31,611 bases of DNA from a bacterium (lineage in GTDB: Bacteria; Krumholzibacteriota; Krumholzibacteriia; G020349025). The notes beneath the pieces were generated by a model, which saw only the letters and a program-made list of their open reading frames with translations, made no database searches and was not told the origin of the DNA. Location: contig JANLSU010000043.1 of NCBI GenBank assembly GCA_031362565.1, positions 1 through 31,611 on the forward strand, written 5' to 3'. Shown one piece after another: positions 1,153 through 27,008 of this stretch (its first letter is position 1; each line of letters opens with the position of its first letter). The translations under genes were made by a program, and so were the position numbers.

Positions 1153-1941
1153 TCACGGCCGCCGCGACTTGCCACGACTTGGGGCGCCCATGCCGAGCAG
1201 TTCCAGCGAGTACTCCCACGTGCGGGGCGAGCTCTGCGGCACGCCGGGAACCGGCTGCGAGAGGCTGCGTTCGCTGCGGACCGTCGCCGTGGCGCGAACG
1301 ATCCCAAGAATAGGTGCCTCGAGGTGCGTCCAAGTCTCGACGTCGCGCACCGCCGACTGGGTCATTTGCGCCGGGCCCAAGGCCTTCACCTGGCGGCTCG
1401 ACTCGTGGATCCGCCGCCCACGGCACTGGAAGGCACGCGCGCCAACGCGCAGCTCGCGGTCGGCGAGCACCGAATCGCGCCCCCCCGGCAGCGGCGGCGT
1501 GCGTTCGAGCCCGGGGATTGCGCCCCAGTCGTCCGGCCCGTAGTGGGTCGTATCGCGGCCGGCAATTTCCACGACGGAGCGTAGATGGTCGAGCAGCGAG
1601 CCGCCCTGGCCGCGAAAAAGCGCCGGCGCGACTTCGAGCCGCGCATCGAGGCTATCTCCGGCCGTGAGCTGCAAGTAGACGCTGCCATCGGGACCGGGAG
1701 CGATCCGCTGCACGCAGGCGTCGAATACGACTTCGCGCCTGCCCGCCGGCTCCTGGGCCGTGAAGCGGTAGTGGCCGCAAGCACCGACGCGCGGCGTGAC
1801 CGCCTCCAGGCCGCGCAGCAAAACTTCGAGCTGCGCCTGTGCCGGCCCCGCCACCGCGACGCACACCGCCACCAAAAGCAAACCGGCGCACGAGCGGTTG
1901 GAGCCGCTCGCGCGCCGGGGTTTCGAAAAGATGCTTCTCAC
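1153..1941 (-). CDS. Secreted hypothetical protein
   Basis: 262 aa; hydrophobic stretch ending ...AGPAQA|Q (signal peptide-like); GTG start overlaps the upstream stop (GTGA, 1938-1941). Confidence 0.7.
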   Translation of the reverse strand: MRSIFSKPRRASGSNRSCAGLLLVAVCVAVAGPAQAQLEVLLRGLEAVTPRVGACGHYRFTAQEPAGRREVVFDACVQRIAPGPDGSVYLQLTAGDSLDARLEVAPALFRGQGGSLLDHLRSVVEIAGRDTTHYGPDDWGAIPGLERTPPLPGGRDSVLADRELRVGARAFQCRGRRIHESSRQVKALGPAQMTQSAVRDVETWTHLEAPILGIVRATATVRSERSLSQPVPGVPQSSPRTWEYSLELLGMGAPSRGKSRRP

Positions 1942-3335
1942 GAGCCGGTATGCGCTCCGTGCGCCATTTTCGCCCAGTAACTCTTGAATTCGAAGTTCGG
2001 GCTGTTCTTCTGGTCGTGACAGACCGTGCAGGTCTTCGGATCCGGCTTCATGACGAACTTGGTGTCACCGTGCAACGTTCCATAGCTGTGACACTGTTCG
2101 CAGGACACGACGCCCAGTTCGGCCTGGGCGTTGGGATAGCCGGTAGGCTGGTTGTAGCCTGTCACGTGGCACTTGAGGCACTCGGCCGAGGACTCCATAG
2201 CCTTGGCCTCGAGTGACGCCATCGAGTGCGCGTGCTTGGTGTCCTTCCACGACTCGTACTCGGCTTGATGGCAGCGTGCACACATCATTGCGCCGATGAA
2301 CTTCTCCTGCGGGCCGCTGGCCGCCGACGCTCCCGCCGTGTTCGCCCCGACGACCTGCTCGACGGCCTCGCGCTTGCGCACATCCTTGAGGCGCTCCTTC
2401 AAGTCGTTCATCATGATCGTCGTGAGCGAGTCATCTTTGACGTTCTTGTCGAGCGCATGCATCTCGTGGGTGTAGCGCAAGATCTTGCCGTGCTCACTGA
2501 CCACCATCATGAGTGCACCGAGGTATTTGCCGCGCTCGCCGGCTTCGAGCACCAGGCTCTTGCCGCCGGTCGAATCGGAACCCACTTCGGTGACCTTGTG
2601 GTTGACGAAGCCGTCCATGCCCGAAATCGCCACGTCGATGCCTTTGACTTCGTCCACGAGCTGCTGTGATTTGCGTTGGCCCAGATGGGTGAACACCACG
2701 ACCACATCGGCCTTGGTGCGCACTTCCGGCAGCAGCGCCGCAACGGCTTCCTTGGGATCGAGGACGCTCAGATTGTCGCCGTCCGAGTTGTAGGGCGACA
2801 GGGCCTCGCCTTCCTGCATGACGCCGAGGAACGCGACCCGAATACCCTTCACGTTGCGCACAACGTAAGGATTGAAGACGAACTTCCCGTCCGCCTTTTG
2901 CTTGAGGTTCGACGACACCAGGTCGAGCTTGTCCTTGACCGCGAGGTCACGCAACGTCTGCACGCCCCAGGAGAGATCCGCCGGGGTGACGTTGACGGCC
3001 TCATACTTCATCGACCCCATGACATCCATGAGGAACAGGCTCTGCGTTTTTTGCGACTCCGCGGAGCCGCCCATGGCAAAGCCGCCACCCGACACCGGAA
3101 GCACGTTCGGGTGAGTGCCGCGATAGTTGTTGATCACCGTCGCTCGCCGAGCAACGCCGCCCATCCGGGCGGATTTTCAGCCACACTCTTCGAAGTCACC
3201 GCGATCGTCGCTCTGATACAGGAGCACGATTTCGGTTTCGGGTGCGGGCTTCATCGCCATTTGCTTCGGCTGTCCGCACGCATACGCGCCGGCGAGCCCC
3301 AGCAATGCGATCAACAACAACAGTCGACTCTTCAC
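1938..3335 (-). CDS. Probable selenoprotein: lipoprotein with an UshA/5'-nucleotidase-like domain (CGU motif) and a C-terminal tetraheme cytochrome c554-like domain, 465 aa
   Basis: RBS AAAGGA then GTG at 3335. Reads MKSRLLLLIALLGLAGAYA-C (lipobox)...LLYQSDDRGDFEECG-TGA(3179-3177)-KSARMGGVARRAT, in frame with the 408-aa ORF. Four CxxCH motifs: CARCH, CLKCH, CEQCH, CTVCH. Confidence 0.85.
3138..3172 (-). promoter_or_regulatory. Candidate bacterial SECIS element downstream of the in-frame UGA
   Basis: mRNA after UGA: AAAU-CCGCCC-GGAU-GGGCGG, then CGUUGCUC-GGC-GAGCGACG (8 bp including one G-U). The second loop starts with G and follows 28 nt after the UGA. Confidence 0.6.
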
Positions 3336-3361
3336 GTGTCGTCCTTTCGACGCATCAAGCG

Positions 3362-3706
3362 TTAGCGCTCGCCGTTGACTGTACCGCTACCGGCCGCCGG
3401 TTCGCAAGGGAGCGCAGCCCGCAGGCGAGCGCGAAATACCGTACCGGGCCGAAACGCGGCCGCCATTCCGGCCGGAACCACGATCGGTTGCTGCGTTTGC
3501 GGGTTGCGTGCCACCCGCTCGGCGCGCCGGCGCGTTTCGAAGGTGCCGAATCCAGGGAGTTGCACGCGCTCACCCCGTTCGAGCGCTTCTACAATGATAC
3601 CGGGTGCTTGGGTTCCGCCAAACAGCGCTTCAACAGCCCGCCGCGCGTTCTCGGCGCTCATGCCACCGCGCCGCGCAACATCAGTCACGAGATTTGTCTT
3701 GTTCAT
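3362..3706 (-). CDS. hup: HU family DNA-binding protein
   Basis: MNKTNLV...VQLPGFGTFETRRRAERVARNPQTQQPIVVPA...FRPG signature; RBS AAGGGGAG before ATG 3706. Confidence 0.92.
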   Translation of the reverse strand: MNKTNLVTDVARRGGMSAENARRAVEALFGGTQAPGIIVEALERGERVQLPGFGTFETRRRAERVARNPQTQQPIVVPAGMAAAFRPGTVFRARLRAALPCEPAAGSGTVNGER

Positions 3707-3971
3707 GTCTCCCCTTGTAGATGACATCGGCGTTCGTCTGGACTCCAAAAACGGCAGCAAGTTCGTTGCAAGTTCGTACCCGGCGCGGGTACCGCACCCC
3801 GGCGGAGCCGCAGACCTTGCCGGGTTGCCGGTGCTATGATCCGCGCACCCCGGGGCCCGCGCGACTCGCCCGCGCTGCCCGGTGGCCGCGGTCGCGGCTA
3901 CCGGTCTGCCGGATTCGGGCCTGCGCCCCGTGTGTGCCCGCATCGATGTTCCGAACCGGAGGATTCACCGC

Positions 3972-6900
3972 ATGAAAGCGAGCCCGAGTGCGCCCGCGTT
4001 GGCTTTCGCGTCTCTCGCCGGAGGCCTGTGTCTCTTTGTTGCAACCGCATTTGCGGTGGTCGAACCCTCTGCCCCGAACCTCGACGTGCACCGGTTGCAG
4101 CCCGTCGAAGCGCTGCCGAAAGCCGCGACCCTCGCGGCGCGCGCCACACTCGAGCGCTCCCCGGCATGGATCTCGTGGAACCAGGCGCACCGCGATTGGC
4201 GCGTCACCTGGAACGAGCGCACCGGAACGGCGCACCGTCTTGTCGGTCCCGGCCTGCACACGTCCGCGTCGCTCACCCATAGCGCCGCAGTGGAATCCGC
4301 GTGCCGCGACCTCTTGAACTCGGCGTCCGGCCTGACCGGCGTTCGCCCAAGCGATTTGCATCTCCTGGCCGCCGACCACCGGCTCGGCCGCTGGTACGTG
4401 GTCTTCGAACAAACGGCGAACGGCATCCCGGTGCGCGGCGGCCGTGCCGACGTGCGCGTCACCGACCAGGGTGACGTGCTGCTCTTGGGCGCCGACTGGC
4501 ATCGCAACGTGACGGTACCGGCACACGCACTGGTTGGTGCGGACGCGGCCCTCGCGTCAGCGTCGCGCGACCTCGGCACCACACCCACCGACGTCAAACA
4601 TGAACTCGTCGTGGTGCCCGAGCCGCAAGGCGCGGGGTACACGTACCATCTCGCTCACGAACTGCATTTCCGCACCACGGAGCCGCTCGGCAACTGGCAG
4701 GCGTGGGTCGATGCCGAAACCGGTGCGCTTCTCGAGCGCGTCAACCAGGTGCGGTACGCCGATCTCACCGGCACGGTAACGACGCAGATCGAACCCATCA
4801 CCGTCGGCGATCCGCTGGTCGAACAACCACTCCGCGATACGCGCTTCAACGTCGGCTCGGGCGTCACGGAGTTCGGCTATACCGGCCCCGATGGCAGCTA
4901 CAACGTGACCACGGCGGCGACAGATTCCGTCAGCGTGCGGGTCCGCCTTTCAGGCCGCTTCGGCCGGGTGTTCAACCAGCAACTGGGGCTGGTCACTCCG
5001 GCCATCGACGCCCGCATGTTGCCCGGCTCGCCGCGCAATTTCGTGTGGAACGACAGCAATTCCAGGGCCAGCGAACGCGATGCCTACTATCATGCACTGG
5101 TCGCGCATCAGAACATCAAGACTTTGGATCCGGCATTCACGGGACTCGACTACACGATGCCGATCAAAGTCGACATCTTCGATCGCGAGTGCAATGCGTT
5201 CTACGACGGTTTGGGGATCAATTTCGAGCTCGAGAGCGCCCGCTGCGCGAACACGGCCCGCATTGCCGACGTCGTTCTGCACGAATATGGCCATGGCATT
5301 ACCGACCAGGTGTACCGGCCCTTGGCGCCCTCCGGGGCGATGCACGAGGGATTCTCGGACTACTGGGCCGCCACCATCATGGATGACCCGCGCATCGGCC
5401 GCGGATTCCGTGGCCCGGGCACCATCCTGCGCACCGTCGACAACACGCGCCGCGTGCCCGACAACGTCAACGGCGAAGTCCACAACGACGGCCTCATCAT
5501 CGCCGGCGCGCTCTGGGACCTGCGCCAGGCGCTCGGCAAGGCAACCGCCGACACCCTGTTTCACTACGCGCGCTATGGGCGCGCCGACAACTTCGACGAC
5601 TACCTGCTGGACGTCCTGGTGACGGACGACGACAACGGCAATATCTATGACGGCACGCCGCACTTCGACGCCATCGTGGCGTCGTTCTCGGTGCACGGCA
5701 TCGGCGACTACAGCGTGCAGATCGCGCACACCCCGGAGGCCGATACCGAGGATCTCCTCAAGCCGCTGACCATCGACGCGACGATCCTGTCGATTTTCGC
5801 CCTCGATCCCGCAAGCTTGCTGCTGTACTACCGCACGGATGGCGGCGGGTGGAACGAGCTGGCGCTGGCACCGGCCGGTGCCGGCGTCCGCGAGTTCGCG
5901 GCGACGATTCCAGCCCAGTCGGGCGGGACGCTTGTCGAGTACTACGTCGCGGCGGCCGACACCGCCGGACACATCGCCGTTGCACCGCCCGCCGGCTCTT
6001 TGGAGCCGTTCGCGTTCCACGTCGGCACCGACATCACGCCGCCGGTAATCACCCACACCCCGCTCGACGACCAGCCCATCGATGCGCCGGCCGGCTGGAC
6101 GTTGCTCGCGGAAGTCACCGACAACCTCGATCGTGCCGTCGCCCAGGTGGCGGCGGAATACAGTGTCAACTCGCCGGCCCTCGACCAGACGGCGAATTTG
6201 GCCCCGGCGGGACTGCCGCGTTGGGCCGTGGGTCTGCCGGCAGCCGGCGCCAGTCTGGGCGACGTGGTGCACTACCGCCTGGTAGCGGTCGATTCGGCCA
6301 TTACTCCGAACAGCGCCGACACACCCAGCAAGGGCGACTACACGTTTCAGGTCGTCGAGGGTCTGAGCCGCGATCTCGAAGCCAACGACGCCGGCTTCAG
6401 CCCCGGCGGCGAATGGGAATGGGGCGTGCCGAATGGCGACCTCACGGCGTTCACCGGCACCAACGTCTGGGGCACCGGCATCCACGACAGCTACGGCGAC
6501 AACACGGACTCCGCCCTCGAGACGGCCCTCATCGATCTCGGTACCTGGACGCATGGGGCGTTCGTGTTCCATCACTGGCTGAAGAGCGAGCCCCTCTACG
6601 ACGGCGGGCGCGTCGAAATCACCACTGATGGTGGGACAAGCTGGACGCCGATCGTGCCGAACGGCGGTTATCCGGTGGATTACGTCGACGCGATCGGCGG
6701 GGCGGGATTCAACGGCGATTCGGGCGGCTGGCAACAGGCGGAGTTCGACTTGTCGCAGTTCCTCGGGCAAACCGTGGCGCTGCGCTGGCGCTTCCTTTCG
6801 GACAACGGCGTCGTTCAACGCGGTTGGTTCATCGACGATGTCGAGATCGTCGCCCGCCAGGTGTTGTCCGTGCCGCTCGTCGTGACCGCCGAGAGCGGAC

Positions 6901-8675
6901 TCGATTCGCAGGTGCCGGTGCGCTGGCAAGCGCCGGCCGGGATCGATCCGCTGGCCGTAAGGACGCCGCTCACCGGCTACAACGTCTACCGCGCCACGCT
7001 ATCGGACTTGAGTGACGCAGTGTTGATCACGCCGTCGCCGGTTGCGACCGCCGCGTTCACGGATGCCGATGCCGTGAACGGCACGGTCTATTTCTACGCC
7101 GTGACCGCCCTGTACGCGGCCGGCGAGAGCCCGCCATCGGCTCCGGCAGCCGGCGGGCCCTATGTCGCAGGTTATTCGGCCGACGTCGCGACCCTCGACG
7201 TGCACGCGGTCGAAGCAGCCAGCGATACGGTGGTGACGTTCAGCAACACCGGTTCGGGCTTCTTGAAAATGAATGTGTGGCTCGGGGATCCCGCCGACAC
7301 CAACATCGATCAAGTGCGCATCGCCTATCCGCTGGGGACGCCCGGCAAAGCCACGGCGGCGGCGGCACACCTCGAGCGCCCCCGCTTCCGCTTCGCGGAC
7401 ATGCTGCAGAAGCCGGCGGCGACGACGGCCAAATTGCCACGCAACGTCGCGAAGGCGGCGGCGGTCCCGGCGGGCGGCGGGTCCTGGACACCGCTCTACA
7501 CCGACACGTCGGAACCGACGGTCACGCCGGATCTGAAACAGTTCTTCGTGCAAGAAACACCGACCGACATTCTGTTCAAGATCACGGCGTATCAGCCGTG
7601 GACCGATTTGCTCAACGACTTCAATACGCTGGTCGGCATCGACGCCGATGCGAACCGTGAAACCGGCGATCAAAACGGCAACGACTACTACATCATCGTC
7701 GGACCGATCGCCCTCCAGTTCGGCGTCCCGGCGGTGATCCTGGTCGGCAACAACCCGGTTGGCGTACCGGCGCATCAAGTCCTGCCGGCGGCCGGCGACT
7801 CGTTGGAAGTCAGCATCGGCCGGGCGCTGTTGGGCAACTCGCAGCGCATCAATCTGACGGTCTTGGCGCTCGACCCGGCGTTTTCGTTGCGTGACATCAT
7901 GCCGAACGGCCGCGTGACATCGAGCTGGCTGCAGCCGCAGCAACTCGCCGTTTCGGTGCCGGCCGGCGCACCGGTTGCATTGTCACTCCACTTCCCCGGC
8001 ATCGTGCCGTTCGGCAACTACGGCGGTAAGATCTTCCTGGAAACCAATGCGCCCGCGAACCCGGTCGTGACGATTCCGGTCGGGTATCACTTCGCAACGA
8101 CGCCGGTGACAATCGCCGATTTGTCGGCGACGCAAACCAACGAAGATGTGGTGGTGCGCTGGCGTACGACGCGCGAGGACGGCGTGCAGGCGTTCCGAAT
8201 CTTCCGCGCCAAAGACGGCAGCGCGTTCGCGGCGCTCGAGCCTGACGTCCAGCCGGAACCGCGCCACCAGTACGCGTTCCGTGACCCGGCGCCGGAAGCC
8301 GGCACCTACGTGTATCGAATCGGCGAGGTCGGCACGGACGGTCGAGTGACACTCGCCGCCACGACCCAAGTCACCGTCGCGGCGACCGTGCCGCGCGTCA
8401 CATTCTTGGATCCGGCGGTGCCGAATCCGTTTAATCCGACGACGATCCTGCGCTTCGGACTCGCGGTCCCCGGCAGTGCCGAAGTCGCCATCTTCGACAG
8501 CCGTGGACGCCGGCTGCGCACTCTGTGGCGCACCGCGCATGCCGAGGCGGCGATCTACCATGTGACGTGGGATGGCCGTGACGATGGCGGCAGGCGCGTC
8601 GCGAGCGGTGTCTATCACGCCCGGCTTGTCGCCTCGGGCCGCGCCTGGACGCGCCGCTTGACGCTGGTGAAGTAA
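3972..8675 (+). CDS. Large secreted zinc metallopeptidase (M4/M36 type) with FTP/PepSY propeptide, Ig/FN3/MAM-like domains and a C-terminal FlgD-Ig/T9SS-like domain
   Basis: GGAGG RBS and signal peptide; VDAETGALL (PepSY-like); HEYGH...MHEGFSD...EVHNDG catalytic motifs; tail PNPFNPTT...IFDSRGR...WDGRDDGGRRVASGVY...LTLVK. Confidence 0.88.
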   Translation: MKASPSAPALAFASLAGGLCLFVATAFAVVEPSAPNLDVHRLQPVEALPKAATLAARATLERSPAWISWNQAHRDWRVTWNERTGTAHRLVGPGLHTSASLTHSAAVESACRDLLNSASGLTGVRPSDLHLLAADHRLGRWYVVFEQTANGIPVRGGRADVRVTDQGDVLLLGADWHRNVTVPAHALVGADAALASASRDLGTTPTDVKHELVVVPEPQGAGYTYHLAHELHFRTTEPLGNWQAWVDAETGALLERVNQVRYADLTGTVTTQIEPITVGDPLVEQPLRDTRFNVGSGVTEFGYTGPDGSYNVTTAATDSVSVRVRLSGRFGRVFNQQLGLVTPAIDARMLPGSPRNFVWNDSNSRASERDAYYHALVAHQNIKTLDPAFTGLDYTMPIKVDIFDRECNAFYDGLGINFELESARCANTARIADVVLHEYGHGITDQVYRPLAPSGAMHEGFSDYWAATIMDDPRIGRGFRGPGTILRTVDNTRRVPDNVNGEVHNDGLIIAGALWDLRQALGKATADTLFHYARYGRADNFDDYLLDVLVTDDDNGNIYDGTPHFDAIVASFSVHGIGDYSVQIAHTPEADTEDLLKPLTIDATILSIFALDPASLLLYYRTDGGGWNELALAPAGAGVREFAATIPAQSGGTLVEYYVAAADTAGHIAVAPPAGSLEPFAFHVGTDITPPVITHTPLDDQPIDAPAGWTLLAEVTDNLDRAVAQVAAEYSVNSPALDQTANLAPAGLPRWAVGLPAAGASLGDVVHYRLVAVDSAITPNSADTPSKGDYTFQVVEGLSRDLEANDAGFSPGGEWEWGVPNGDLTAFTGTNVWGTGIHDSYGDNTDSALETALIDLGTWTHGAFVFHHWLKSEPLYDGGRVEITTDGGTSWTPIVPNGGYPVDYVDAIGGAGFNGDSGGWQQAEFDLSQFLGQTVALRWRFLSDNGVVQRGWFIDDVEIVARQVLSVPLVVTAESGLDSQVPVRWQAPAGIDPLAVRTPLTGYNVYRATLSDLSDAVLITPSPVATAAFTDADAVNGTVYFYAVTALYAAGESPPSAPAAGGPYVAGYSADVATLDVHAVEAASDTVVTFSNTGSGFLKMNVWLGDPADTNIDQVRIAYPLGTPGKATAAAAHLERPRFRFADMLQKPAATTAKLPRNVAKAAAVPAGGGSWTPLYTDTSEPTVTPDLKQFFVQETPTDILFKITAYQPWTDLLNDFNTLVGIDADANRETGDQNGNDYYIIVGPIALQFGVPAVILVGNNPVGVPAHQVLPAAGDSLEVSIGRALLGNSQRINLTVLALDPAFSLRDIMPNGRVTSSWLQPQQLAVSVPAGAPVALSLHFPGIVPFGNYGGKIFLETNAPANPVVTIPVGYHFATTPVTIADLSATQTNEDVVVRWRTTREDGVQAFRIFRAKDGSAFAALEPDVQPEPRHQYAFRDPAPEAGTYVYRIGEVGTDGRVTLAATTQVTVAATVPRVTFLDPAVPNPFNPTTILRFGLAVPGSAEVAIFDSRGRRLRTLWRTAHAEAAIYHVTWDGRDDGGRRVASGVYHARLVASGRAWTRRLTLVK

Positions 8676-8751: not shown

Positions 8752-10251
8752 TCAGCGCTCCGAATCCGGGCGCGACTTGAGCTGCAACTCGATTTCGGAG
8801 GCCAGCAACGGCGCCGCTTCGCCGTTCCGCGAATACAAGTACGAACGCGCCGCGGTGTTCGCTCCACGCGGGTAGCGCCAGTAACGCCACGGGGTGCGGA
8901 GCAACTGGCGCAGCGCGTAGTTGCGAAAGTGTTCGGGGATATCCGCCACGAAGTCGTGCCCGAGGACCCGCAGCCGGCGGACGCCGGGCCGGTACTCGTG
9001 CGCCGGGTCCGGCCGCGCTTCGACGCGGAACGACGCGAGCAATTGCCGCAGCCGCGCCCGCCGCCAGCCGATTTCGAGCGGCATCGAGTACACGCCGCGC
9101 ACCTCCGGCGAGTGGAAGACGACGTTCATATCCGTTTCCACCATCCACGCCAGCGATTCGGTGCCGCCCCGCACCCGGTCGAGAGTGCGGCGCTGTTCGG
9201 TCGCACGCCGCGCACTCACCAGGCGCGCCTTCGGCAACCACAGCTCGCGATAGTGGAAATCGACCACGATCCACTCGACGTCGCCGGCATCCGGCCCATC
9301 GGCCCGGACCCACACTTCGACGCGTTCCCAGTCGCGTTCCCACATCTTGTTGAGTTCGGCGGCGGTGCAATACATGAAACGCCACACCCAGTAGCGCTGG
9401 CCGGCGAGCCATGCCGGCGCTTGCCCCGGTTCGTAAGAATGGGCCGCACTCTCCGGATCGGCGTCATAGAAATAGAGCGTCGGCTCGAGGCCGCGCGGCA
9501 CCAAGAAGGCGTCGACCAGGAAGTACGCCAGTGCCAGCGCCACCAGGGCCGCGACAAACAGACTCGGATGCGGCGCCGTGAGCGATCCCGAGAGCCGCAT
9601 GATGCCGACGACCACATAGACGGGCAGCGGTCCGATGACCGCGGTGATGCCGTCACGAAACAAGATCCACGACAGCAACACGACGAGCGGATAGTGCGCG
9701 AAACGCACCAGCCCTTCGAGCCCGTGCGGCACGAGCCCGGTATGCAGCACCCATTGCGAGCCGAGTGTGAGCCCGATCGCCACGAGCGCCGAGAAGAGCA
9801 ACTTGTACGTCGGGTACACCAGGCTGAAAAGCACTTCGGCGCGCTGCGGATCGAAGAGATCGCGGGCCAACGTCTCGCCGCCCCAGTCGAGCCGGACGTT
9901 GCCGTTCGGTTCCGGTTCGATCGCCAACCGGTGTGGTGTGAGCAACGTGGCCGAGTCATCGTCGGGAAGGTGCAGCCGGAACTTCGAACGTACGTGCTGC
10001 AGCACGCGGTACGGAATGAGCGCCGGCCCGGCGATGAGCGTCAGCAGGTAGTAGCCCAAGCCCGGGAGCCGCGTTTCGGGCCGGTCGAGACAGGCGCGAA
10101 ACAACGCCCGGTCGACGAGACCCTGCCGCGACAACGCCGCGCGCATGACGCCGCCGAGCCCGAGGACGGACGCCCAGTAGTCGCAGTACAAGAACGCGTG
10201 CGGCTTGTCGCCGGCTGCGTCCGCTTGTGCCGGATCGGTTTTAGTAGCCAA
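8752..10251 (-). CDS. Hypothetical integral membrane protein (~499 aa)
   Basis: Several hydrophobic segments followed by a Trp/Tyr-rich soluble domain. TTG start at 10251 after GGGGGA overlaps the end of the LptD-like gene; the start is uncertain. Confidence 0.7.
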   Translation of the reverse strand: MATKTDPAQADAAGDKPHAFLYCDYWASVLGLGGVMRAALSRQGLVDRALFRACLDRPETRLPGLGYYLLTLIAGPALIPYRVLQHVRSKFRLHLPDDDSATLLTPHRLAIEPEPNGNVRLDWGGETLARDLFDPQRAEVLFSLVYPTYKLLFSALVAIGLTLGSQWVLHTGLVPHGLEGLVRFAHYPLVVLLSWILFRDGITAVIGPLPVYVVVGIMRLSGSLTAPHPSLFVAALVALALAYFLVDAFLVPRGLEPTLYFYDADPESAAHSYEPGQAPAWLAGQRYWVWRFMYCTAAELNKMWERDWERVEVWVRADGPDAGDVEWIVVDFHYRELWLPKARLVSARRATEQRRTLDRVRGGTESLAWMVETDMNVVFHSPEVRGVYSMPLEIGWRRARLRQLLASFRVEARPDPAHEYRPGVRRLRVLGHDFVADIPEHFRNYALRQLLRTPWRYWRYPRGANTAARSYLYSRNGEAAPLLASEIELQLKSRPDSER

Positions 10252-13200
10252 GACCGCGGTCCCCCGACTCGTAGAACAGCTCATTCTGATGCTTCTCGAC
10301 ATACAGCCGGAAGTAATACTGCCAATCGTTCTGCAGACGCACGCGCGTAAAGCTCGCCTTCCAGCAATGCAACTGCCGCGTGACGCGAATCGACGGCAGT
10401 CCGAGGATGCGCGTCTTGGCGTCGTAGTACGTCCCGAACGACACGTCCCAGTTGCGGGTCGGCTGGACGCTGAAGCTGACGGGCACCGACGCGGTCTCGG
10501 TGTGGCCCTCGGTGCGCCGCAGCGAGTAGCTGAGCGACAGCGCCCAAGCGAGCGATCCCGTACCGCCCACCGCGACCGGTTTGACGTCGCCCAGCGCGCC
10601 ATCCACCGAACTCAACGGCCGGGCCCGGGGACGCAAGGGCGAGACCCCGGAGCTGTCTTCGGCGGCAGCGCCGCTCGCGGTCGTGTCACTGGCGGCCGCC
10701 GGGCCGCCGCCTTCCTCCTCGACGACCCGGTTGCGGGCCTTTTCCTCGAGCCCCGTGTTGCCATACCCGAACTTGCCGCCCAGGCGCATCGCAAACGGCA
10801 CCTGGGTGCTGGTGATCCGGCCGCGATACGGGTCGTAGGTTTGGCTGATGGTGAGCCGGAGGGGTCCGGAGCGATTGATGGTGATGTTGCTGCCGATCAT
10901 GCCCCACTTCCGGGCCGGACCACCGGTCGCGGGAGCCACGACATCGGGGTTGTACCCGGTGCTCAACTGCCAGTCGAGCAGGCCGTCGATCTTGCGCTCA
11001 CCGTCCTTGCCGCCGCGCACCTTGGCATCGAAGGTGTTGGCGAGCGACAGCGCGAGCGACGTACTGCGCACCTGTTGGTCGGCGATGTTCGGCCGCCACA
11101 CGAGCGTGGCACGCGGATCGAGCCGGTGCCGCAATGCGGTGATTCCGAACACATTCGGGTAGAAGAGGCCGTACATCGTCGTCGACGCGCCGACACTCGT
11201 ATCCAAGTTGCGATGGCTATTGCGCGCACTCGGGCGGGCCGTATCCTTGAGATAGCTCTCGCTGTAGTTGGCCGCCGGCGTCAAGCTCAGCATCGCCACA
11301 TGCACCGAGCGGCTCAACCCGAGGCCCGTCGCGGCGCTCACGGCGTTGTCGTCACGGATCCCGAACGAATCGGCATTGGTGGCGATCAACGGAATGGCCG
11401 CACTAGGCTTAGCAAACCGCGACCGGGTCGTGGTGCGCGAGAACCGCACCGAGGGCTGAAACTGCAGGCTGTGGAAGAACGCCTGAAAGGGCTCGTGGCG
11501 CGCATCCCGTGGCGCCGGCGCCAGGCTGATACGCGGAAACGTCACATTCAGATTCGGCAGATGCGATGTGATGAGGGAGCCGGCAAACTTCGAGCCCGGA
11601 TTCAAGAGCTGGGTGCGGTCGACGGCGACCGAAGTGTTCAGCCATTCGCCCTGCCGCCGGAGCGTCAGGCCCGAACGCAGGTTGCGCTCCAGAGACCGGT
11701 AAATATCGATGTTCTGGTTGACGTCGCGCACGGCGCGGTCGGAACTCGCGTAGTCGAGGCTGCCGGCGAGCCGCGTGCGTTCGCCCAGGGTCTGCTGGTG
11801 CTGCCCGCCGAGGGTGTACGAAAACACCCCGCCGCCCGGATCGAACGTCTTCCGCACGTTGTAGTTCAAGTTGCCGTCGGCGTGGTAGCGGACCTTGTAA
11901 CGCGTCGCGACCGCGAAGCGCACGCTGCGGGCTTCGCTCGTCCGCAACACGCTTTGGATGCTCGAACGGTTCGGCCGCGGCCGGTCGGTGAAGTCGCCCG
12001 AGAACGTAAAATCGTAATATTTGCTCGCGGCCCAGAAGTAATCGAGGCCGCGAATATATCGCGAGCTACCATTGATGCCGAACTCGACGTCCGGCTGTAG
12101 GAAACCGGAGTGCCGGTTGGTATCGGTGGAATTGAAGATGAACGGCAGGTACATGACCGGGACGTGCCCCAAGTACACATGCACCGGCCTGCCGACGATG
12201 CGTTTGTGCAAGTAGATCTTCATGCGGTCGCATTGGAACCGGTAGTGCGGCTGTGCCAAATCGCAGGTCGTGTAGCTGGCATTCCGCACCTGCAGGATGC
12301 CGTCCTCCTTCTTGCGCAGCACTTCACCCGTGTAGTAGCCCTGATCATAGGTCGTCGAGCCGCCTTGGATCCACGCCTCGCGGCTGTTCATGTCGTAGCC
12401 CATGCGGTCGCCAAAGATGCGGTCGCCGGCATCATCGAGGGCCGGCCGTTCGGTCGCGTCCAGGAGATCGGTGTCGGCGTCATAGTGGATGCGCCCGGCG
12501 CGGAGGGTATTGCCTTCGTAGATCACCTCGGCGGCCTTCTGCAACAGCAGATCGTTTTGCTTCGCCAGGTACAAGATGCTCTCGCCGCTGTACTCGACGG
12601 TTCGCGCGCGCCGGTCGAAGTCGAACCGCGTGCTGTCCCCCACCACCACCCCGAACGTCGAATCGAAGTGCGCCGTCGCCGGCGCCCGCAACGAATCCAG
12701 GTTGCCGTCGAAATAGCGGTAGGTGCCGGCAGCATTGCCGCGGAACACGACTTCGTCGACGGCGTCGTTTTGAAACGTCATCAAGATCGAGTCAGCGTGC
12801 GCTTCGTTGCGCGAGACACGAGTCTTTTGCGTTTCTTCCGGTACGAACCGGCTCGAAGCCTGCCCCACGACTACGGCGCGCGCCAGTTTGCCACGGTCGA
12901 AGTAGAGTTGCGCCGAATCGCCGTGCACTTCGTTCGGACCGCGAATGAGCGAGGTATCGGCACGGGCTTGTAACAGTTCGGCCTCGGCCCGCACCGCGAC
13001 CCGTTCGACCTCTTTGTCTTTGTAAAACACGTCGATCTGGCGGCCGCGCATCGTCGTGCCATCGCGGTCGACCATCGGATGGCCGCGCAGGAGAATCATG
13101 TCGCGGTTGCGATACAGGATGGCCGAATCAGCGAGGGCGAGGGTCGTGCCGCGCCGGATCTGCACGTTGCCGCGGGCCCGCACCACACTGCGGTCGCGAT

Positions 13201-13951
13201 CGAAGCGCAGGTCGGCGGCCCGCACTTCGGTATTGTCGGCACCTTTTTCGCGCAACACCATGAGCGGCTGGGGCTCGAGCCGGGCTTCGCCGCTCGTGCG
13301 GTCGTAGACCGCATGCGTGCCGCGCGCCTCCGAGCCGGTCTCCAAATCGGTGATGACGACCGAACCAAATGCTTCGCCGGTACCCGCGGCCTCGTGGTAC
13401 AGCACGCTGTCGGCTTGCACGCGGTTCTTGGCGTCCTTGAAGTCGACCTCGCCCCACAGCCACGCGAGCTGTGTCTTGCGCCAATAGCGCACCCGGCGCG
13501 CGTGAATGAGCCCGAAGCGATCTTCGATGGTGACGCGGCCCTTCAACGCCGCGATGTCGTCGGGACGCGAGAACTCGCCCTCGTCGCCCTTCATGACCAC
13601 ACCGCGGTCGTGGACCACGACATTTTCGAAGAAGAAGCCGCGGCCTTGGCTGCGATAGATGCGGGCGCGGCGGCTGTCGATGGTCGTGCTGTCGCTCACG
13701 AGCCGCACGCCGTTTTCCAGGTAGCTCACCCATTCGCCGTTCTCACGCACGTAACGGCCGCGCCCGGCACTGACGTGCAGGGTGTCGGAGCGTGCCGAGG
13801 AGTCGGCGACGGCGAGAGGCGCCGGAACGGGCGCTGGAACCGGAGCCGGCGGCTTGGGCACGGGCTGCGAGCGTGCGAGAGCGGCGCCAAGCGTGCACGC
13901 GACGCAGGCGAGGGCTGCAATGCGGCGCAGTCCGGCGGGCGAAAACTTCAC
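10241..13951 (-). CDS. lptD: LPS assembly protein LptD-like with an extended N-terminal OstA/LptA beta-jellyroll region (~1236 aa)
   Basis: Signal peptide; repeated OstA-like strands (G.V.I.D..., ADS..Y); YTTCDLAQPHY...VPVMYLPF...SGFLQP; C-terminal barrel with RQLHCW. GTG start overlaps the ROK stop (GTGA). Confidence 0.8.
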   Translation of the reverse strand: MKFSPAGLRRIAALACVACTLGAALARSQPVPKPPAPVPAPVPAPLAVADSSARSDTLHVSAGRGRYVRENGEWVSYLENGVRLVSDSTTIDSRRARIYRSQGRGFFFENVVVHDRGVVMKGDEGEFSRPDDIAALKGRVTIEDRFGLIHARRVRYWRKTQLAWLWGEVDFKDAKNRVQADSVLYHEAAGTGEAFGSVVITDLETGSEARGTHAVYDRTSGEARLEPQPLMVLREKGADNTEVRAADLRFDRDRSVVRARGNVQIRRGTTLALADSAILYRNRDMILLRGHPMVDRDGTTMRGRQIDVFYKDKEVERVAVRAEAELLQARADTSLIRGPNEVHGDSAQLYFDRGKLARAVVVGQASSRFVPEETQKTRVSRNEAHADSILMTFQNDAVDEVVFRGNAAGTYRYFDGNLDSLRAPATAHFDSTFGVVVGDSTRFDFDRRARTVEYSGESILYLAKQNDLLLQKAAEVIYEGNTLRAGRIHYDADTDLLDATERPALDDAGDRIFGDRMGYDMNSREAWIQGGSTTYDQGYYTGEVLRKKEDGILQVRNASYTTCDLAQPHYRFQCDRMKIYLHKRIVGRPVHVYLGHVPVMYLPFIFNSTDTNRHSGFLQPDVEFGINGSSRYIRGLDYFWAASKYYDFTFSGDFTDRPRPNRSSIQSVLRTSEARSVRFAVATRYKVRYHADGNLNYNVRKTFDPGGGVFSYTLGGQHQQTLGERTRLAGSLDYASSDRAVRDVNQNIDIYRSLERNLRSGLTLRRQGEWLNTSVAVDRTQLLNPGSKFAGSLITSHLPNLNVTFPRISLAPAPRDARHEPFQAFFHSLQFQPSVRFSRTTTRSRFAKPSAAIPLIATNADSFGIRDDNAVSAATGLGLSRSVHVAMLSLTPAANYSESYLKDTARPSARNSHRNLDTSVGASTTMYGLFYPNVFGITALRHRLDPRATLVWRPNIADQQVRSTSLALSLANTFDAKVRGGKDGERKIDGLLDWQLSTGYNPDVVAPATGGPARKWGMIGSNITINRSGPLRLTISQTYDPYRGRITSTQVPFAMRLGGKFGYGNTGLEEKARNRVVEEEGGGPAAASDTTASGAAAEDSSGVSPLRPRARPLSSVDGALGDVKPVAVGGTGSLAWALSLSYSLRRTEGHTETASVPVSFSVQPTRNWDVSFGTYYDAKTRILGLPSIRVTRQLHCWKASFTRVRLQNDWQYYFRLYVEKHQNELFYESGDRGLGY

Positions 13952-14919
13952 GACGGCTCGAGACGCGCGACTGCGAGGAGTGCGGCGCCCACCACGGCGG
14001 CATTGTTGCCGAGCGCCGCGGTGACGACTTCCGCTGTCTCGGCCGGCACACTCATCGCGCGCTCGCGCAACGTGCGGCGCGCCGGCCCAAGCAAGAGATC
14101 GCCGGCGCGCGCAATGCCGCCGCCGACTACGATGCGCTCCGGATTCAAGAGATTCGCCAAGTTCGCGAGCGCGACACCCAGCCACCGGCCGGTCGCGTCG
14201 AGCACTTCGATCGCTACGGCATCGCCGTCGCCCGCTGCTTCGCTGATGAGGCGAGGCGACAGCGTTTCTGCCGCGACCGCGCGCAACACACTCGGACGGG
14301 TATCCCGTCCCAGCATCTCGACGGCGCGCGCCACGATGAATTGTGCGCCGACATAGCGTTCGAGGCAGCCCCAGTTGCCGCAGGCGCATTGCGGCCCATC
14401 GGCCTCGATCGACATGTGGCCGATTTCACCCGCAGCGCCGCGCGCGCCGCGATACAACTTGCCGTCCAGAACGAGTCCGCCACCGACGCCGGTGCCGAGC
14501 GTCAAACACAAGAGGTGGCGCGTGCCGCGTCCGGCGCCGCAGTGCCATTCGCCGTACGCCATCGCGTTGACATCGTTCTCGAGAAAGGCCGGCACCCCAA
14601 GCGCTGCACCCAAGCGGGCGGCCAGCGGATAGCGCTCCCAGGTGCGCAGATTCGGGGCATCGAGCACGAGATTGTTGGCGCCGTCGATGATGCCGGCGCT
14701 GTCGATACCGAGGGCGCGCATCTCGCCGGCCTCGAGCCCGTGTTCGCGCCGCAGCATGTCGACACAGGCCAGGATCCGCCCGGCGGCTGCCTCGGGCCCG
14801 GCGTCGCCCTCGGTTGGGATCTCGCGCGACTCGACGACGCGGCCATCGCTCCAGACGACGGCGATTTTGATCGCCGTACCGCCGATGTCGACGCCGATTG
14901 TCCGGAAGGTGTCGCTCAA
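13948..14919 (-). CDS. ROK family sugar kinase (glucokinase-like)
   Basis: IGVDIGGT, ENDVNA, TLGTGVGGG, GEIGH, CACGNWGCLE motifs; no HTH; TTG start after GAGGTGGGG. Confidence 0.92.
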   Translation of the reverse strand: MSDTFRTIGVDIGGTAIKIAVVWSDGRVVESREIPTEGDAGPEAAAGRILACVDMLRREHGLEAGEMRALGIDSAGIIDGANNLVLDAPNLRTWERYPLAARLGAALGVPAFLENDVNAMAYGEWHCGAGRGTRHLLCLTLGTGVGGGLVLDGKLYRGARGAAGEIGHMSIEADGPQCACGNWGCLERYVGAQFIVARAVEMLGRDTRPSVLRAVAAETLSPRLISEAAGDGDAVAIEVLDATGRWLGVALANLANLLNPERIVVGGGIARAGDLLLGPARRTLRERAMSVPAETAEVVTAALGNNAAVVGAALLAVARLEPS

Positions 14920-22516: not shown

Positions 22517-23803
22517 CTACGCGGCTGCGAGCCGCATCGCGAAGCAGACGCCGCGTTTGTCCGGGTTGTCTTCGATCCAGATGCGGCCGCCGTGGTATTC
22601 CTCGACGATCCGGAGCACGAGTGCCAGCCCCAAGCCCCAGCCGCGGCGCTTGGTCGTGTAGCCCGGTTGAAAGACACGGGTGCGGTTCGCAGCGGGAATC
22701 CCCTTGCCGGTATCGGCGACGCGGACTTCGATCGCCTGGCCACCGGCGACGGCTTCGGCGCGGACCCGAATCTCGCCGCCCTTCTCGAGCGCATCGACGG
22801 CGTTCTTGAGCAGATTCTCGAAGACCCATTCGAGCAGTTCGCGATTGGCACGCACCGGCGGCAGCGCCGCGATGTTGGCCTCGACGCGGACATGCGACCC
22901 GAGATGCGGAATACGGCGCTCGATATATTGCACCGATTCGCGCAGCACTTGCTCCAAATCGAGCGGCACGAGGTCCGGCTTCGAACCAATCTTGCTGAAC
23001 CGCGCGCTCACCTTCGACAGACGTTCGAGGTCGTGCTCCATCTCGCGGTAGGTTTCGGCGCGCCGGGCCCGCGCTTGCTCGGGTGGCGTGTCTTTTTCAT
23101 CCTGGGCTTGCAGCACTTGCACCCAGCCCAGGAGCGACGTCAGCGGCGTGCCGAGCTGATGCGCCGTCTCGCGCGCCATGCCGACCCAAATCGAGCGCTG
23201 CTCGCCGAGTTTCATGTAACGGAACATGAGCAATGCGACGGCGGTGAAAATGGCGACGGTGGCGACCAAAAAGAGCGGAATCCAGCGCAACTGCCGCGCC
23301 AGGCTGGAAGGACCGTAGTGCACCGAGGCCTGCAGAACATCGCCGACTCGGATTGGATACGGCGCCACATGAGCATCGAACTCGCGCACCAGCCGATCGA
23401 GCGCCCGGCGCCGGGCTTGCGCTTCAACCGACAAATCGGCACGCCCGAGGTCGCCCGGCTGCTCGGCCTGCTGCGGCGGCACCGGAATGTTGCGCCACAC
23501 GAGCGGCACGTTGGCGGCGTCGGTGATGATGATTGGGAAATCCACCTCGCGGAGCACGTTCTCGATGACCTGAAACGATCCGGGCTGGTCGGCCTTCAGC
23601 ACCGACTCGCCGACGAAGAGCGAGAAAACGCGCGTCACGACCTGCGCTTGGCGGTCCATCTGGCGGGCGGCGCGCCCGGTATAGATGATGGCCGACAGGA
23701 ACACGAGCCCGAGCCCGCCCAAGAGATACGCCGTGAGCAGGACTTTCGGCCGCGAGCCTGCCACCCGGGGCGTCCGTAGGAATTCGTTGAGGGCTCGATT
23801 CAA
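22517..23803 (-). CDS. Membrane sensor histidine kinase
   Basis: Two TM segments; H-box ETAHQLGTPLTSL, N-box ENLLKNAVDA, DTGKGI, GYTTKRRGWGLGL; TTG start after GGAG. Confidence 0.9.
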   Translation of the reverse strand: MNRALNEFLRTPRVAGSRPKVLLTAYLLGGLGLVFLSAIIYTGRAARQMDRQAQVVTRVFSLFVGESVLKADQPGSFQVIENVLREVDFPIIITDAANVPLVWRNIPVPPQQAEQPGDLGRADLSVEAQARRRALDRLVREFDAHVAPYPIRVGDVLQASVHYGPSSLARQLRWIPLFLVATVAIFTAVALLMFRYMKLGEQRSIWVGMARETAHQLGTPLTSLLGWVQVLQAQDEKDTPPEQARARRAETYREMEHDLERLSKVSARFSKIGSKPDLVPLDLEQVLRESVQYIERRIPHLGSHVRVEANIAALPPVRANRELLEWVFENLLKNAVDALEKGGEIRVRAEAVAGGQAIEVRVADTGKGIPAANRTRVFQPGYTTKRRGWGLGLALVLRIVEEYHGGRIWIEDNPDKRGVCFAMRLAAA

Positions 23804-23897
23804 GAAGCCTGTCTCCGAACGTCGGGGACTCGAGCGCGGCCATGGCGCCCGAGTATACTCACCAAATCCCGATCCATCGGCGCCGAATGCGCCCGCG

Positions 23898-23927
23898 TTG
23901 ACCCCCAGCCCCAAGGGGCAGTACCAT
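23898..23927 (+). promoter_or_regulatory. Sigma70-like promoter for the radical SAM-miaB operon
   Basis: TTGACC, 18-nt spacer, TACCAT. Confidence 0.55.
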
Positions 23928-24044
23928 GATCGGCCCGCTGTCCGCCCGGTTGATCGAGACCGCGTGCGGCCGCGGCCGCGCACCAGAGCCCACGGCCATC
24001 CACGCCACGTGTTGCGCAGTCGACCGCCACCGCTCGGAGCTGTC

Positions 24045-27008
<2,964 letters not shown>

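Follow-up and report, generated by a model that had tools for sequence, protein, structure and literature searches.

The locus described here lies on the minus strand of a 31,611-nucleotide (nt) contig (JANLSU010000043.1 of assembly GCA_031362565.1; the whole of this stretch is referred to as the window) from a member of the Krumholzibacteriota. A single reading frame of 465 codons runs from a GTG start at 3335 to a terminal TGA at 1940-1938, with one lone in-frame TGA at 3179-3177, which is codon 53. Translated with TGA as U, this frame (1938..3335, minus strand) forms a full selenoprotein gene carrying selenocysteine (Sec) at position 53, and its product aligned over the whole of its length to relatives from across the phylum. 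A putative Shine-Dalgarno-like sequence, AAAGGA (3342..3347, minus strand), was read 6 nt upstream of the GTG (3335-3333). The N-terminus of the product is MKSRLLLLIALLGLAGAYAC, which includes Cys20, while LLYQSDDRGDFEECG stands directly before the TGA at codon 53 and KSARMGGVARR after it; the longer segment EIVLLYQSDDRGDFEECG likewise runs up to the TGA at 3179-3177 and is followed by KSARMGGVARR. The UGA (3177..3179, minus strand) was assigned as the Sec codon of an E-C51-G52-U53 motif on the basis of a column that holds only TGA or Cys among relatives. A preliminary description of this locus had proposed the same gene with its ribosome-binding site, GTG start, AYA-C20, CG-TGA, KSARMGGVARR and four CxxCH motifs, and every one of these features was present at the coordinates where it had been placed.

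Existing gene calls begin downstream of the TGA. The mechanical open reading frame (ORF) list contained only a 408-amino-acid (aa) ORF at this locus (1938..3164), starting from Met58, and the public gene call for the same locus (P0002) was 399 aa in length and started from residue 67. The gene calls of close database relatives were 370-403 aa long, with 77-86% coverage, and all of them began after the TGA. Being cut at the Sec codon, the public calls lose both the export signal and the presumed catalytic Cys/Sec pair from the annotation, and a search of these genomes turns up a cytoplasmic "multiheme cytochrome" or "phosphodiesterase", a form of the protein that cannot exist.

The protein was searched against 208 genomes of the same phylum (E ≤ 1e-20), resulting in homologs in 202 genomes, including all 125 of those with a completeness of 90% or more and a contamination of 5% or less. 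Among the matches listed, 136 of 150 contained at least one in-frame TGA. Thirty related loci were re-translated, 29 of which cover the Sec site (the remaining one, L030, is a partial contig), and in 29/29 the TGA fell in the same aligned column within the context [E/P]-C-G-U-x5-G-G-x-A-R-R. The protein sequence was conserved on both flanks of the TGA in all 29, the upstream side included. Twelve full-length relatives had no TGA, and each of the 12 carried Cys at the Sec column (SCGC or PCGC) and kept the four CxxCH motifs; among the matches listed, all 12 came from one family of the phylum (label f8). Another set, of 80 loci drawn from named public genomes and overlapping the first set, consisted of 72 loci with TGA, four with Cys (P0049, for example, has PCGC at the Sec position) and four on contigs ending before the site, such that 76/76 loci holding the site had either TGA or Cys. 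In an alignment of 37 family sequences (A2) the codon-53 column was U or C in 37/37, and no other residue was seen in any set. The preliminary description had named Trp or another non-Cys residue at this position as evidence against recoding, and no homolog had one. This conserved TGA pattern is far beyond chance, and the protein, present throughout the high-quality genomes, appears indispensable to Krumholzibacteriota.

Contigs assembled from sequencing runs were also compared with the locus. In contigs of related strains, all seven differences upstream of the TGA (3225-3300) fell at third codon positions of the frame, as did 18 of the 25 differences downstream. The only contig spanning 3177-3179 came from run X1, which is probably the source of the window itself, and showed 0 differences. 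Related strains also gave contigs from RNA libraries, over 3183-3391 and 2900-3167; such libraries can contain DNA, and we make no claim of expression from them. These contigs add little to the question of a sequencing error, which had been raised in the preliminary description; such an error is ruled out by the conservation of the TGA across the phylum.

Downstream of the UGA, an RNA hairpin resembling a bacterial selenocysteine insertion sequence (SECIS) was identified at 3138..3156 (minus strand) from folding and covariation, with an 8-bp stem (CGUUGCUC / GAGCGACG) closed by a GGC triloop. Counted from the UGA, the stem starts after 20 nt and the loop after 28 nt; across loci the triloop reads G-G-C/A. 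Bacterial SECIS elements follow a rule of roughly 16-37 nt between UGA and loop with a G in the apical loop, and the 3156-3138 hairpin has the stem-loop expected of bacterial SelB/SECIS selenoproteins. Minimum-energy folds were computed for the 60 nt from the UGA in 29 Sec loci and 12 Cys loci, and the hairpin was found at the same position in 28/29 of the former and 0/12 of the latter. Pairing was then scored in an ungapped alignment (A1), with controls in which the 3' arm was slid by 1-3 columns: 91.2% of cells were paired in the true register compared to 31-51% in the slid controls. Changes on both sides occurred in four of the eight pairs: at columns 39/45, for instance, C-G is replaced by U-A, and at columns 36/48 G-C gives way to U-A or C-G. 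The observed covariation score was reached by 0/500 shuffles. As the stem lies within A-R-R-A codons, the covariation falls at synonymous sites. At least seven of the eight pairs could form in 68/72 Sec loci of the 80-locus set and in 0/4 of its Cys loci. An Rfam scan of 201 nt around the UGA, with E up to 10, returned chance-level matches of 11-13 bits and no SECIS family; absence of an Rfam match is expected for bacterial SECIS elements. Another hairpin immediately after the UGA (3172-3157, CCGCCC/GGGCGG) was specific to the window and unconserved in relatives and was not counted as a SECIS for that reason.

The genome from which the window derives (5.4 Mb, 133 contigs, 100% complete) contains a complete set of Sec genes, a point on which the preliminary description had made its reading depend. 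Matches to selA (501 bits), selB (350 bits) and selD (384 bits) were all above their cut-offs, and tRNA-Sec was detected at 78.8 bits and called by ARAGORN as tRNA-SeC with anticodon TCA. Together with the conserved TGA and the covarying hairpin, this makes it almost certain that the protein is a selenoprotein in which UGA 53 is read as Sec. The selD gene of this genome (contig C6:945-1859, locus L010) itself has one in-frame TGA, indicating that selenophosphate synthetase is also a selenoprotein here.

A signal peptide with a possible lipobox, L-A-G-A-Y-A-C20, was recognised at 3276..3335 (minus strand) from the sequence and from the hydrophobic N-terminus of relatives, every one of which has a hydrophobic N-terminal segment ahead of the domain. 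The attachment of c-type hemes takes place outside the cytoplasm, and the conserved hydrophobic N-terminus fits this need; export of the predicted selenoprotein is well supported. A-Y-A-C20 fits the lipobox pattern. A Cys ending the hydrophobic stretch was present in 9/12 Cys-form relatives and in 0/4 of the closest Sec-form relatives. The protein had been described beforehand as a membrane-anchored lipoprotein: its export signal holds for all relatives, while the anchor is plausible from AYA-C20 of the window protein, a Cys that the closest Sec relatives do not share.

With Sec read as Cys, the protein matched the NCBIfam model NF041198 (UshA_like_PCGU, "UshA-like (seleno)protein") at 261.2 bits, slightly below its curated cut-off, and in the scan of the genome the match was split between model positions 15-269, the UshA-like half (142 bits, one TGA), and 346-519, the heme half (109.8 bits). 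All 37 aligned relatives also matched NF041198 (best E 2.5e-91). The protein is a divergent, slightly sub-threshold member of this uncharacterised family, with which it shares [P/E]-C-G-U/C ahead of GG.ARR, an UshA-like half, a heme half and the alternation of Sec and Cys. It differs from the commoner form in having ECGU in place of PCGU (68 PCGU and 4 ECGU among the 72 Sec loci) and comes from a Krumholzibacteriota-type lineage. With NF049981 (UshA-like selenoprotein family 2), whose cut-off is 140, the score was only 33.5 bits, and the protein is not a member of that family.

UshA-like CxU selenoproteins were reported from ocean metagenomes with 76 Sec and 92 Cys homologs (Zhang and Gladyshev, 2008; PMC2398784), and the family has been tabled since under COG0737 in a 2022 review (PMC9312934) and with NF041198 in a 2026 review (PMC13188914). 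The tabled entries in these three papers give CxU as the redox-type motif of the family and make no mention of hemes (PMC2398784; PMC9312934; PMC13188914). A literature search returned no paper combining 'Krumholzibacteriota' and 'selenocysteine'. The proposal of an UshA-like CxU selenoprotein from an uncultured lineage, with a tetraheme c554-type module as part of its chain, was borne out. The architecture stands as proposed but not its novelty, as NF041198 already spans both the UshA-like and the heme halves and the fusion is a catalogued trait of the family. What is new here is the corrected gene model, the covarying SECIS, the near-obligatory distribution across the phylum, the systematic loss of the metal site and an analogue with a thioredoxin fold. 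The finding in itself would come as no surprise to specialists in selenoproteins.

A second UshA-like selenoprotein paralog is encoded in the same genome on contig C6 (approximately 75.9-76.9 kb; locus L021, roughly 1440-2450, plus strand). It is about 330 aa long, with a lipobox-type signal (…LLGAGCSG…), PCGU with an in-frame TGA and GGLARRA, and it has neither a CxxCH motif nor a heme module. It scored 83 bits to NF041198 (positions 19-244) and just 25.7 bits to NF049981. The make-up of this paralog suggests that the Cys/Sec domain can also function as a stand-alone unit.

The N-terminal part of the window protein (residues 33-326; 2358..3239, minus strand) is a 5'-nucleotidase-type domain of the metallophosphatase fold followed by a linker helix, as identified by profile comparison, AlphaFold2 and Foldseek. 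The A2 profile matched 5'-nucleotidases in the PDB over its N-terminal 280 positions (E 1e-36). An AlphaFold2 model built from A2 had a mean predicted local distance difference test score (pLDDT) of 78, with residues 33-326 confident as an α/β domain and a long helix (303-326), and the top Foldseek matches in the PDB were CD73 and other 5'-nucleotidases (E 9e-23, approximately 315 columns). The protein resembles E. coli UshA, human CD73 and the snake-venom enzyme (1ush, 4h2i, 7d0v) in its N-terminal fold, linker helix, GG.ARR, N143 and D234. In contrast to these enzymes it has no two-metal centre, its C-terminal nucleotide-binding domain is replaced by a cytochrome, and a Cys/Sec pair has been added after the first strand, the Cys-Gly-Sec motif lying in the loop that follows this strand. 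A Pfam scan at E ≤ 0.01 found neither PF00149 nor PF02872 (the metallophosphatase and 5'-nucleotidase C-terminal domains).

The canonical metal and catalytic positions were located by HMMER alignment to the snake-venom 5'-nucleotidase. Where the phosphatase has D, H, D, N, H, H, H, the window protein has D, R, G, P, A, H, M, keeping two of the seven (D43 and H217), and the complete set of metal ligands was found in 0/37 family sequences. Three of the five residues of a D/D/E/H/H set are missing from the window protein and its closest relatives, which retain C-G-U. Positions that are invariant throughout the family are C51, G52, U/C53, G59, G60, R63, R64, N143, R206, D234, the four CxxCH motifs, H368 and H422. 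Since the true 5'-nucleotidase also has GG.ARR, N143 and D234, these are probably structural; judged from the alignment, what sets this family apart is its Cys/Sec pair together with its hemes.

The C-terminal part (residues 345-465; 1941..2303, minus strand) is a tetraheme cytochrome c554-type module, recognised by PF13435, NF041198 and 1bvb. Its four CxxCH motifs are C352-H356 (2282-2268), C386-H390 (2180-2166), C412-H416 (2102-2088) and C436-H440 (2030-2016), all read from the minus-strand translation. PF13435 (Cytochrome_C554) was the sole Pfam match of the protein (52.2 bits against a cut-off of 20.8, residues 352-417), and cytochrome c554 of the PDB (1bvb) matched the C-terminus of the A2 profile with an E of 2.6e-19. 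The four CxxCH motifs, H368 and H422 were invariant in 37/37 sequences and H459 was present in 36/37. The module has the four CxxCH in c554-type order and the three conserved distal His in common with Nitrosomonas europaea cytochrome c554 (PF13435; 1bvb), but it serves as the C-terminal part of a larger enzyme rather than as a free carrier, is about 120 residues in length and is low in identity.

The same c554-like tetraheme module occurs in a metagenomic protein of 650 aa (P0054), where its fusion partner is a thioredoxin-fold domain of the TlpA/ResA-like kind that bears a CPHC motif. The heme module of P0054 gave 139 bits to NF041198 positions 401-518, and the protein has three more CxxCH motifs. 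Its domain order is that of a heme-wired thiol-disulfide oxidoreductase, predicted and uncharacterised. With the same heme module placed on a two-cysteine redox centre, P0054 is the nearest analogy for how the window protein may work; in contrast to the latter its redox domain has a thioredoxin fold, it carries extra hemes and lacks Sec, and it is likewise uncharacterised.

Taken together, these features point to an exported Sec protein that is a heme-wired Cys/Sec redox enzyme, an overall reading to which we give a probability of about 0.6. Translation would begin at GTG 3335, and the UGA at 3179-3177 would be recoded to Sec by SelB and tRNA-Sec under the guidance of the hairpin at 3156-3138. 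The mature protein would have a 5'-nucleotidase-fold domain lacking the two-metal centre and carrying the invariant C51-G-U53, with the c554-type four-heme module joined to this domain by the long helix. C51 and U53 would cycle between a selenol/thiol and a selenenylsulfide state, and the four hemes would pass electrons between this pair and either the respiratory chain or some external partner, making the protein a candidate heme-wired selenol/thiol oxidoreductase of the cell envelope. The most likely substrate would be a small oxidised sulfur, selenium or disulfide compound. The listing of CxU as a redox-type motif and the fusion of hemes to a dithiol domain in P0054, an apparent swap of one redox domain for another, lend support to the C51/U53 redox couple, which by this analogy is the probable mechanism, if not by far. 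More tentatively, the protein could be a phylum-wide core member of an uncharacterised class of enzymes with a C-G-U selenenylsulfide in a metal-free 5'-nucleotidase scaffold wired to c554 hemes, which would be cytochrome-driven and would reduce or oxidise a sulfur, selenium or disulfide substrate. To our knowledge there is no biochemically characterised precedent for a heme-wired C-G-U class built on the nucleotidase scaffold.

Several observations weigh against this interpretation. No independent contig bridges the TGA, those of the other three runs ending at 3180, 3183 or 3167. The NF041198 score of 261.2 bits is below the curated cut-off of 275, with model positions 270-345 unmatched. The heme module had a low pLDDT of 36-72 in an AlphaFold2 model that was built without hemes. 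At the old metal positions, 24/37 family members keep a D/D/E/H/H subset, the window protein not among them, and there may be metal-assisted chemistry in the wider family. The neighbouring genes are housekeeping genes, with no respiratory or sulfur operon within the window to point to a pathway. Finally, no experiment has been reported on any member of the UshA-like family.

The alternative that survives best is that Cys51 and Sec53 act as ligands, either to a metal in the remodelled pocket or as the missing axial ligand of a heme, with catalysis taking place there. Cys-ligated hemes occur in sulfur-oxidising cytochromes, and with three conserved His outside the CxxCH motifs (H368 and H422 in 37/37, H459 in 36/37) for four hemes, one heme of the module is left without an obvious sixth ligand. 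The D/D/E/H/H residues at the old metal positions in 24/37 members and the presence of SoxB among the weaker matches (76.6 bits) also speak for this alternative. SoxB, a thiosulfohydrolase (TIGR04486; 2wdc), is a periplasmic member of the 5'-nucleotidase superfamily with a link to sulfur chemistry; the SoxB score of the window protein compares to a cut-off of 550, and weak matches to the model were obtained for 36/37 relatives. Unlike the window protein, SoxB keeps a di-manganese site and has neither a CxU motif nor hemes. The window protein and its closest relatives, however, keep C-G-U despite having lost three of the five metal residues, and the family therefore has no conserved need of a metal site. 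The missing sixth ligand needs no special explanation either, given that cytochrome c554 has one five-coordinate heme, and there is no structural indication that Sec53 lies close to a heme, confidence in the heme-bearing part of the model being low. A ligand role for the pair is on balance unlikely.

Much less probable is that the N-terminal domain is still a hydrolase of the 5'-nucleotidase or SoxB type, acting as a phosphoesterase or thiosulfohydrolase with the hemes as an accessory electron sink. The homology of sequence and fold to 5'-nucleotidases is clear, with UshA, CpdB and SoxB models matching at 30-78 bits, but only 2/7 active-site positions remain in the window protein and all seven in 0/37 relatives, PF00149 and PF02872 are without a match at E ≤ 0.01, and the substrate-binding C-terminal domain has been replaced by the cytochrome. 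A true stop or an assembly error at the TGA, giving a product of 399-408 aa with the upstream frame non-coding or a separate small ORF, would agree with the truncated form predicted by gene callers for the window and all close database relatives and with the lack of an independent contig across 3177-3179, but it is close to refuted by the conservation of the TGA and both its flanks in 29/29 loci with Cys in the alternative forms, the covarying SECIS hairpin and complete Sec machinery, the third-codon position of 7/7 strain differences upstream, and the absence of a signal peptide from a truncated product whose c-type hemes would have to be attached outside the cytoplasm.

As an exported heme-wired Cys/Sec enzyme, the window protein would represent an unusual design for a redox enzyme, a nucleotidase fold that has traded its metals for Cys-Gly-Sec and a four-heme wire, and its biochemistry would be interesting if worked out. 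Being near-universal in this candidate phylum (202/208 genomes; 125/125 of high quality) and mostly in the Sec form, it offers a good entry to the physiology of the phylum and to the function of an orphan family. The natural Cys forms provide an easy route to expression.

Immediately downstream of the selenoprotein gene, a 262-aa ORF with a signal peptide was read from the sequence on the same strand (1153..1941), its GTG start overlapping the selenoprotein stop (GTGA), and the two may be co-transcribed. This ORF was conserved downstream in 4/29 loci, all of the same taxonomic family, and with conservation confined to that family we make no claim for it as a partner. It had no Pfam match, and the protein atlas gave unnamed clusters alone. 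Upstream, an HU-type DNA-binding gene (3362..3943, minus strand; PF00216, 81.2 bits) encodes the HU domain in residues 80-174, and the 80-residue N-terminal extension of this ORF may be an over-call. An HU homolog was found upstream on the same strand in 19/29 related loci across the phylum, a synteny that is unusually stable for two functionally unrelated genes.

Elsewhere in the window lie housekeeping genes for a DEDDh exonuclease, LptD, a Mur-ligase-type protein, AccD, TsaE, a MiaB-type radical SAM enzyme, and a response regulator with a histidine kinase. A 1597-aa ORF (3882-8675, plus strand), transcribed divergently from the HU and selenoprotein genes, has InhA-like MAM, fn3 and C-terminal FlgD-Ig-like domains and is probably a large secreted or surface protein. 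The LptD-type ORF is unusually long at 1382 aa (10241-14389, minus strand), and a 1107-aa ORF (23685-27008, plus strand) is a fusion of radical SAM, B12-binding and DUF2344 domains.

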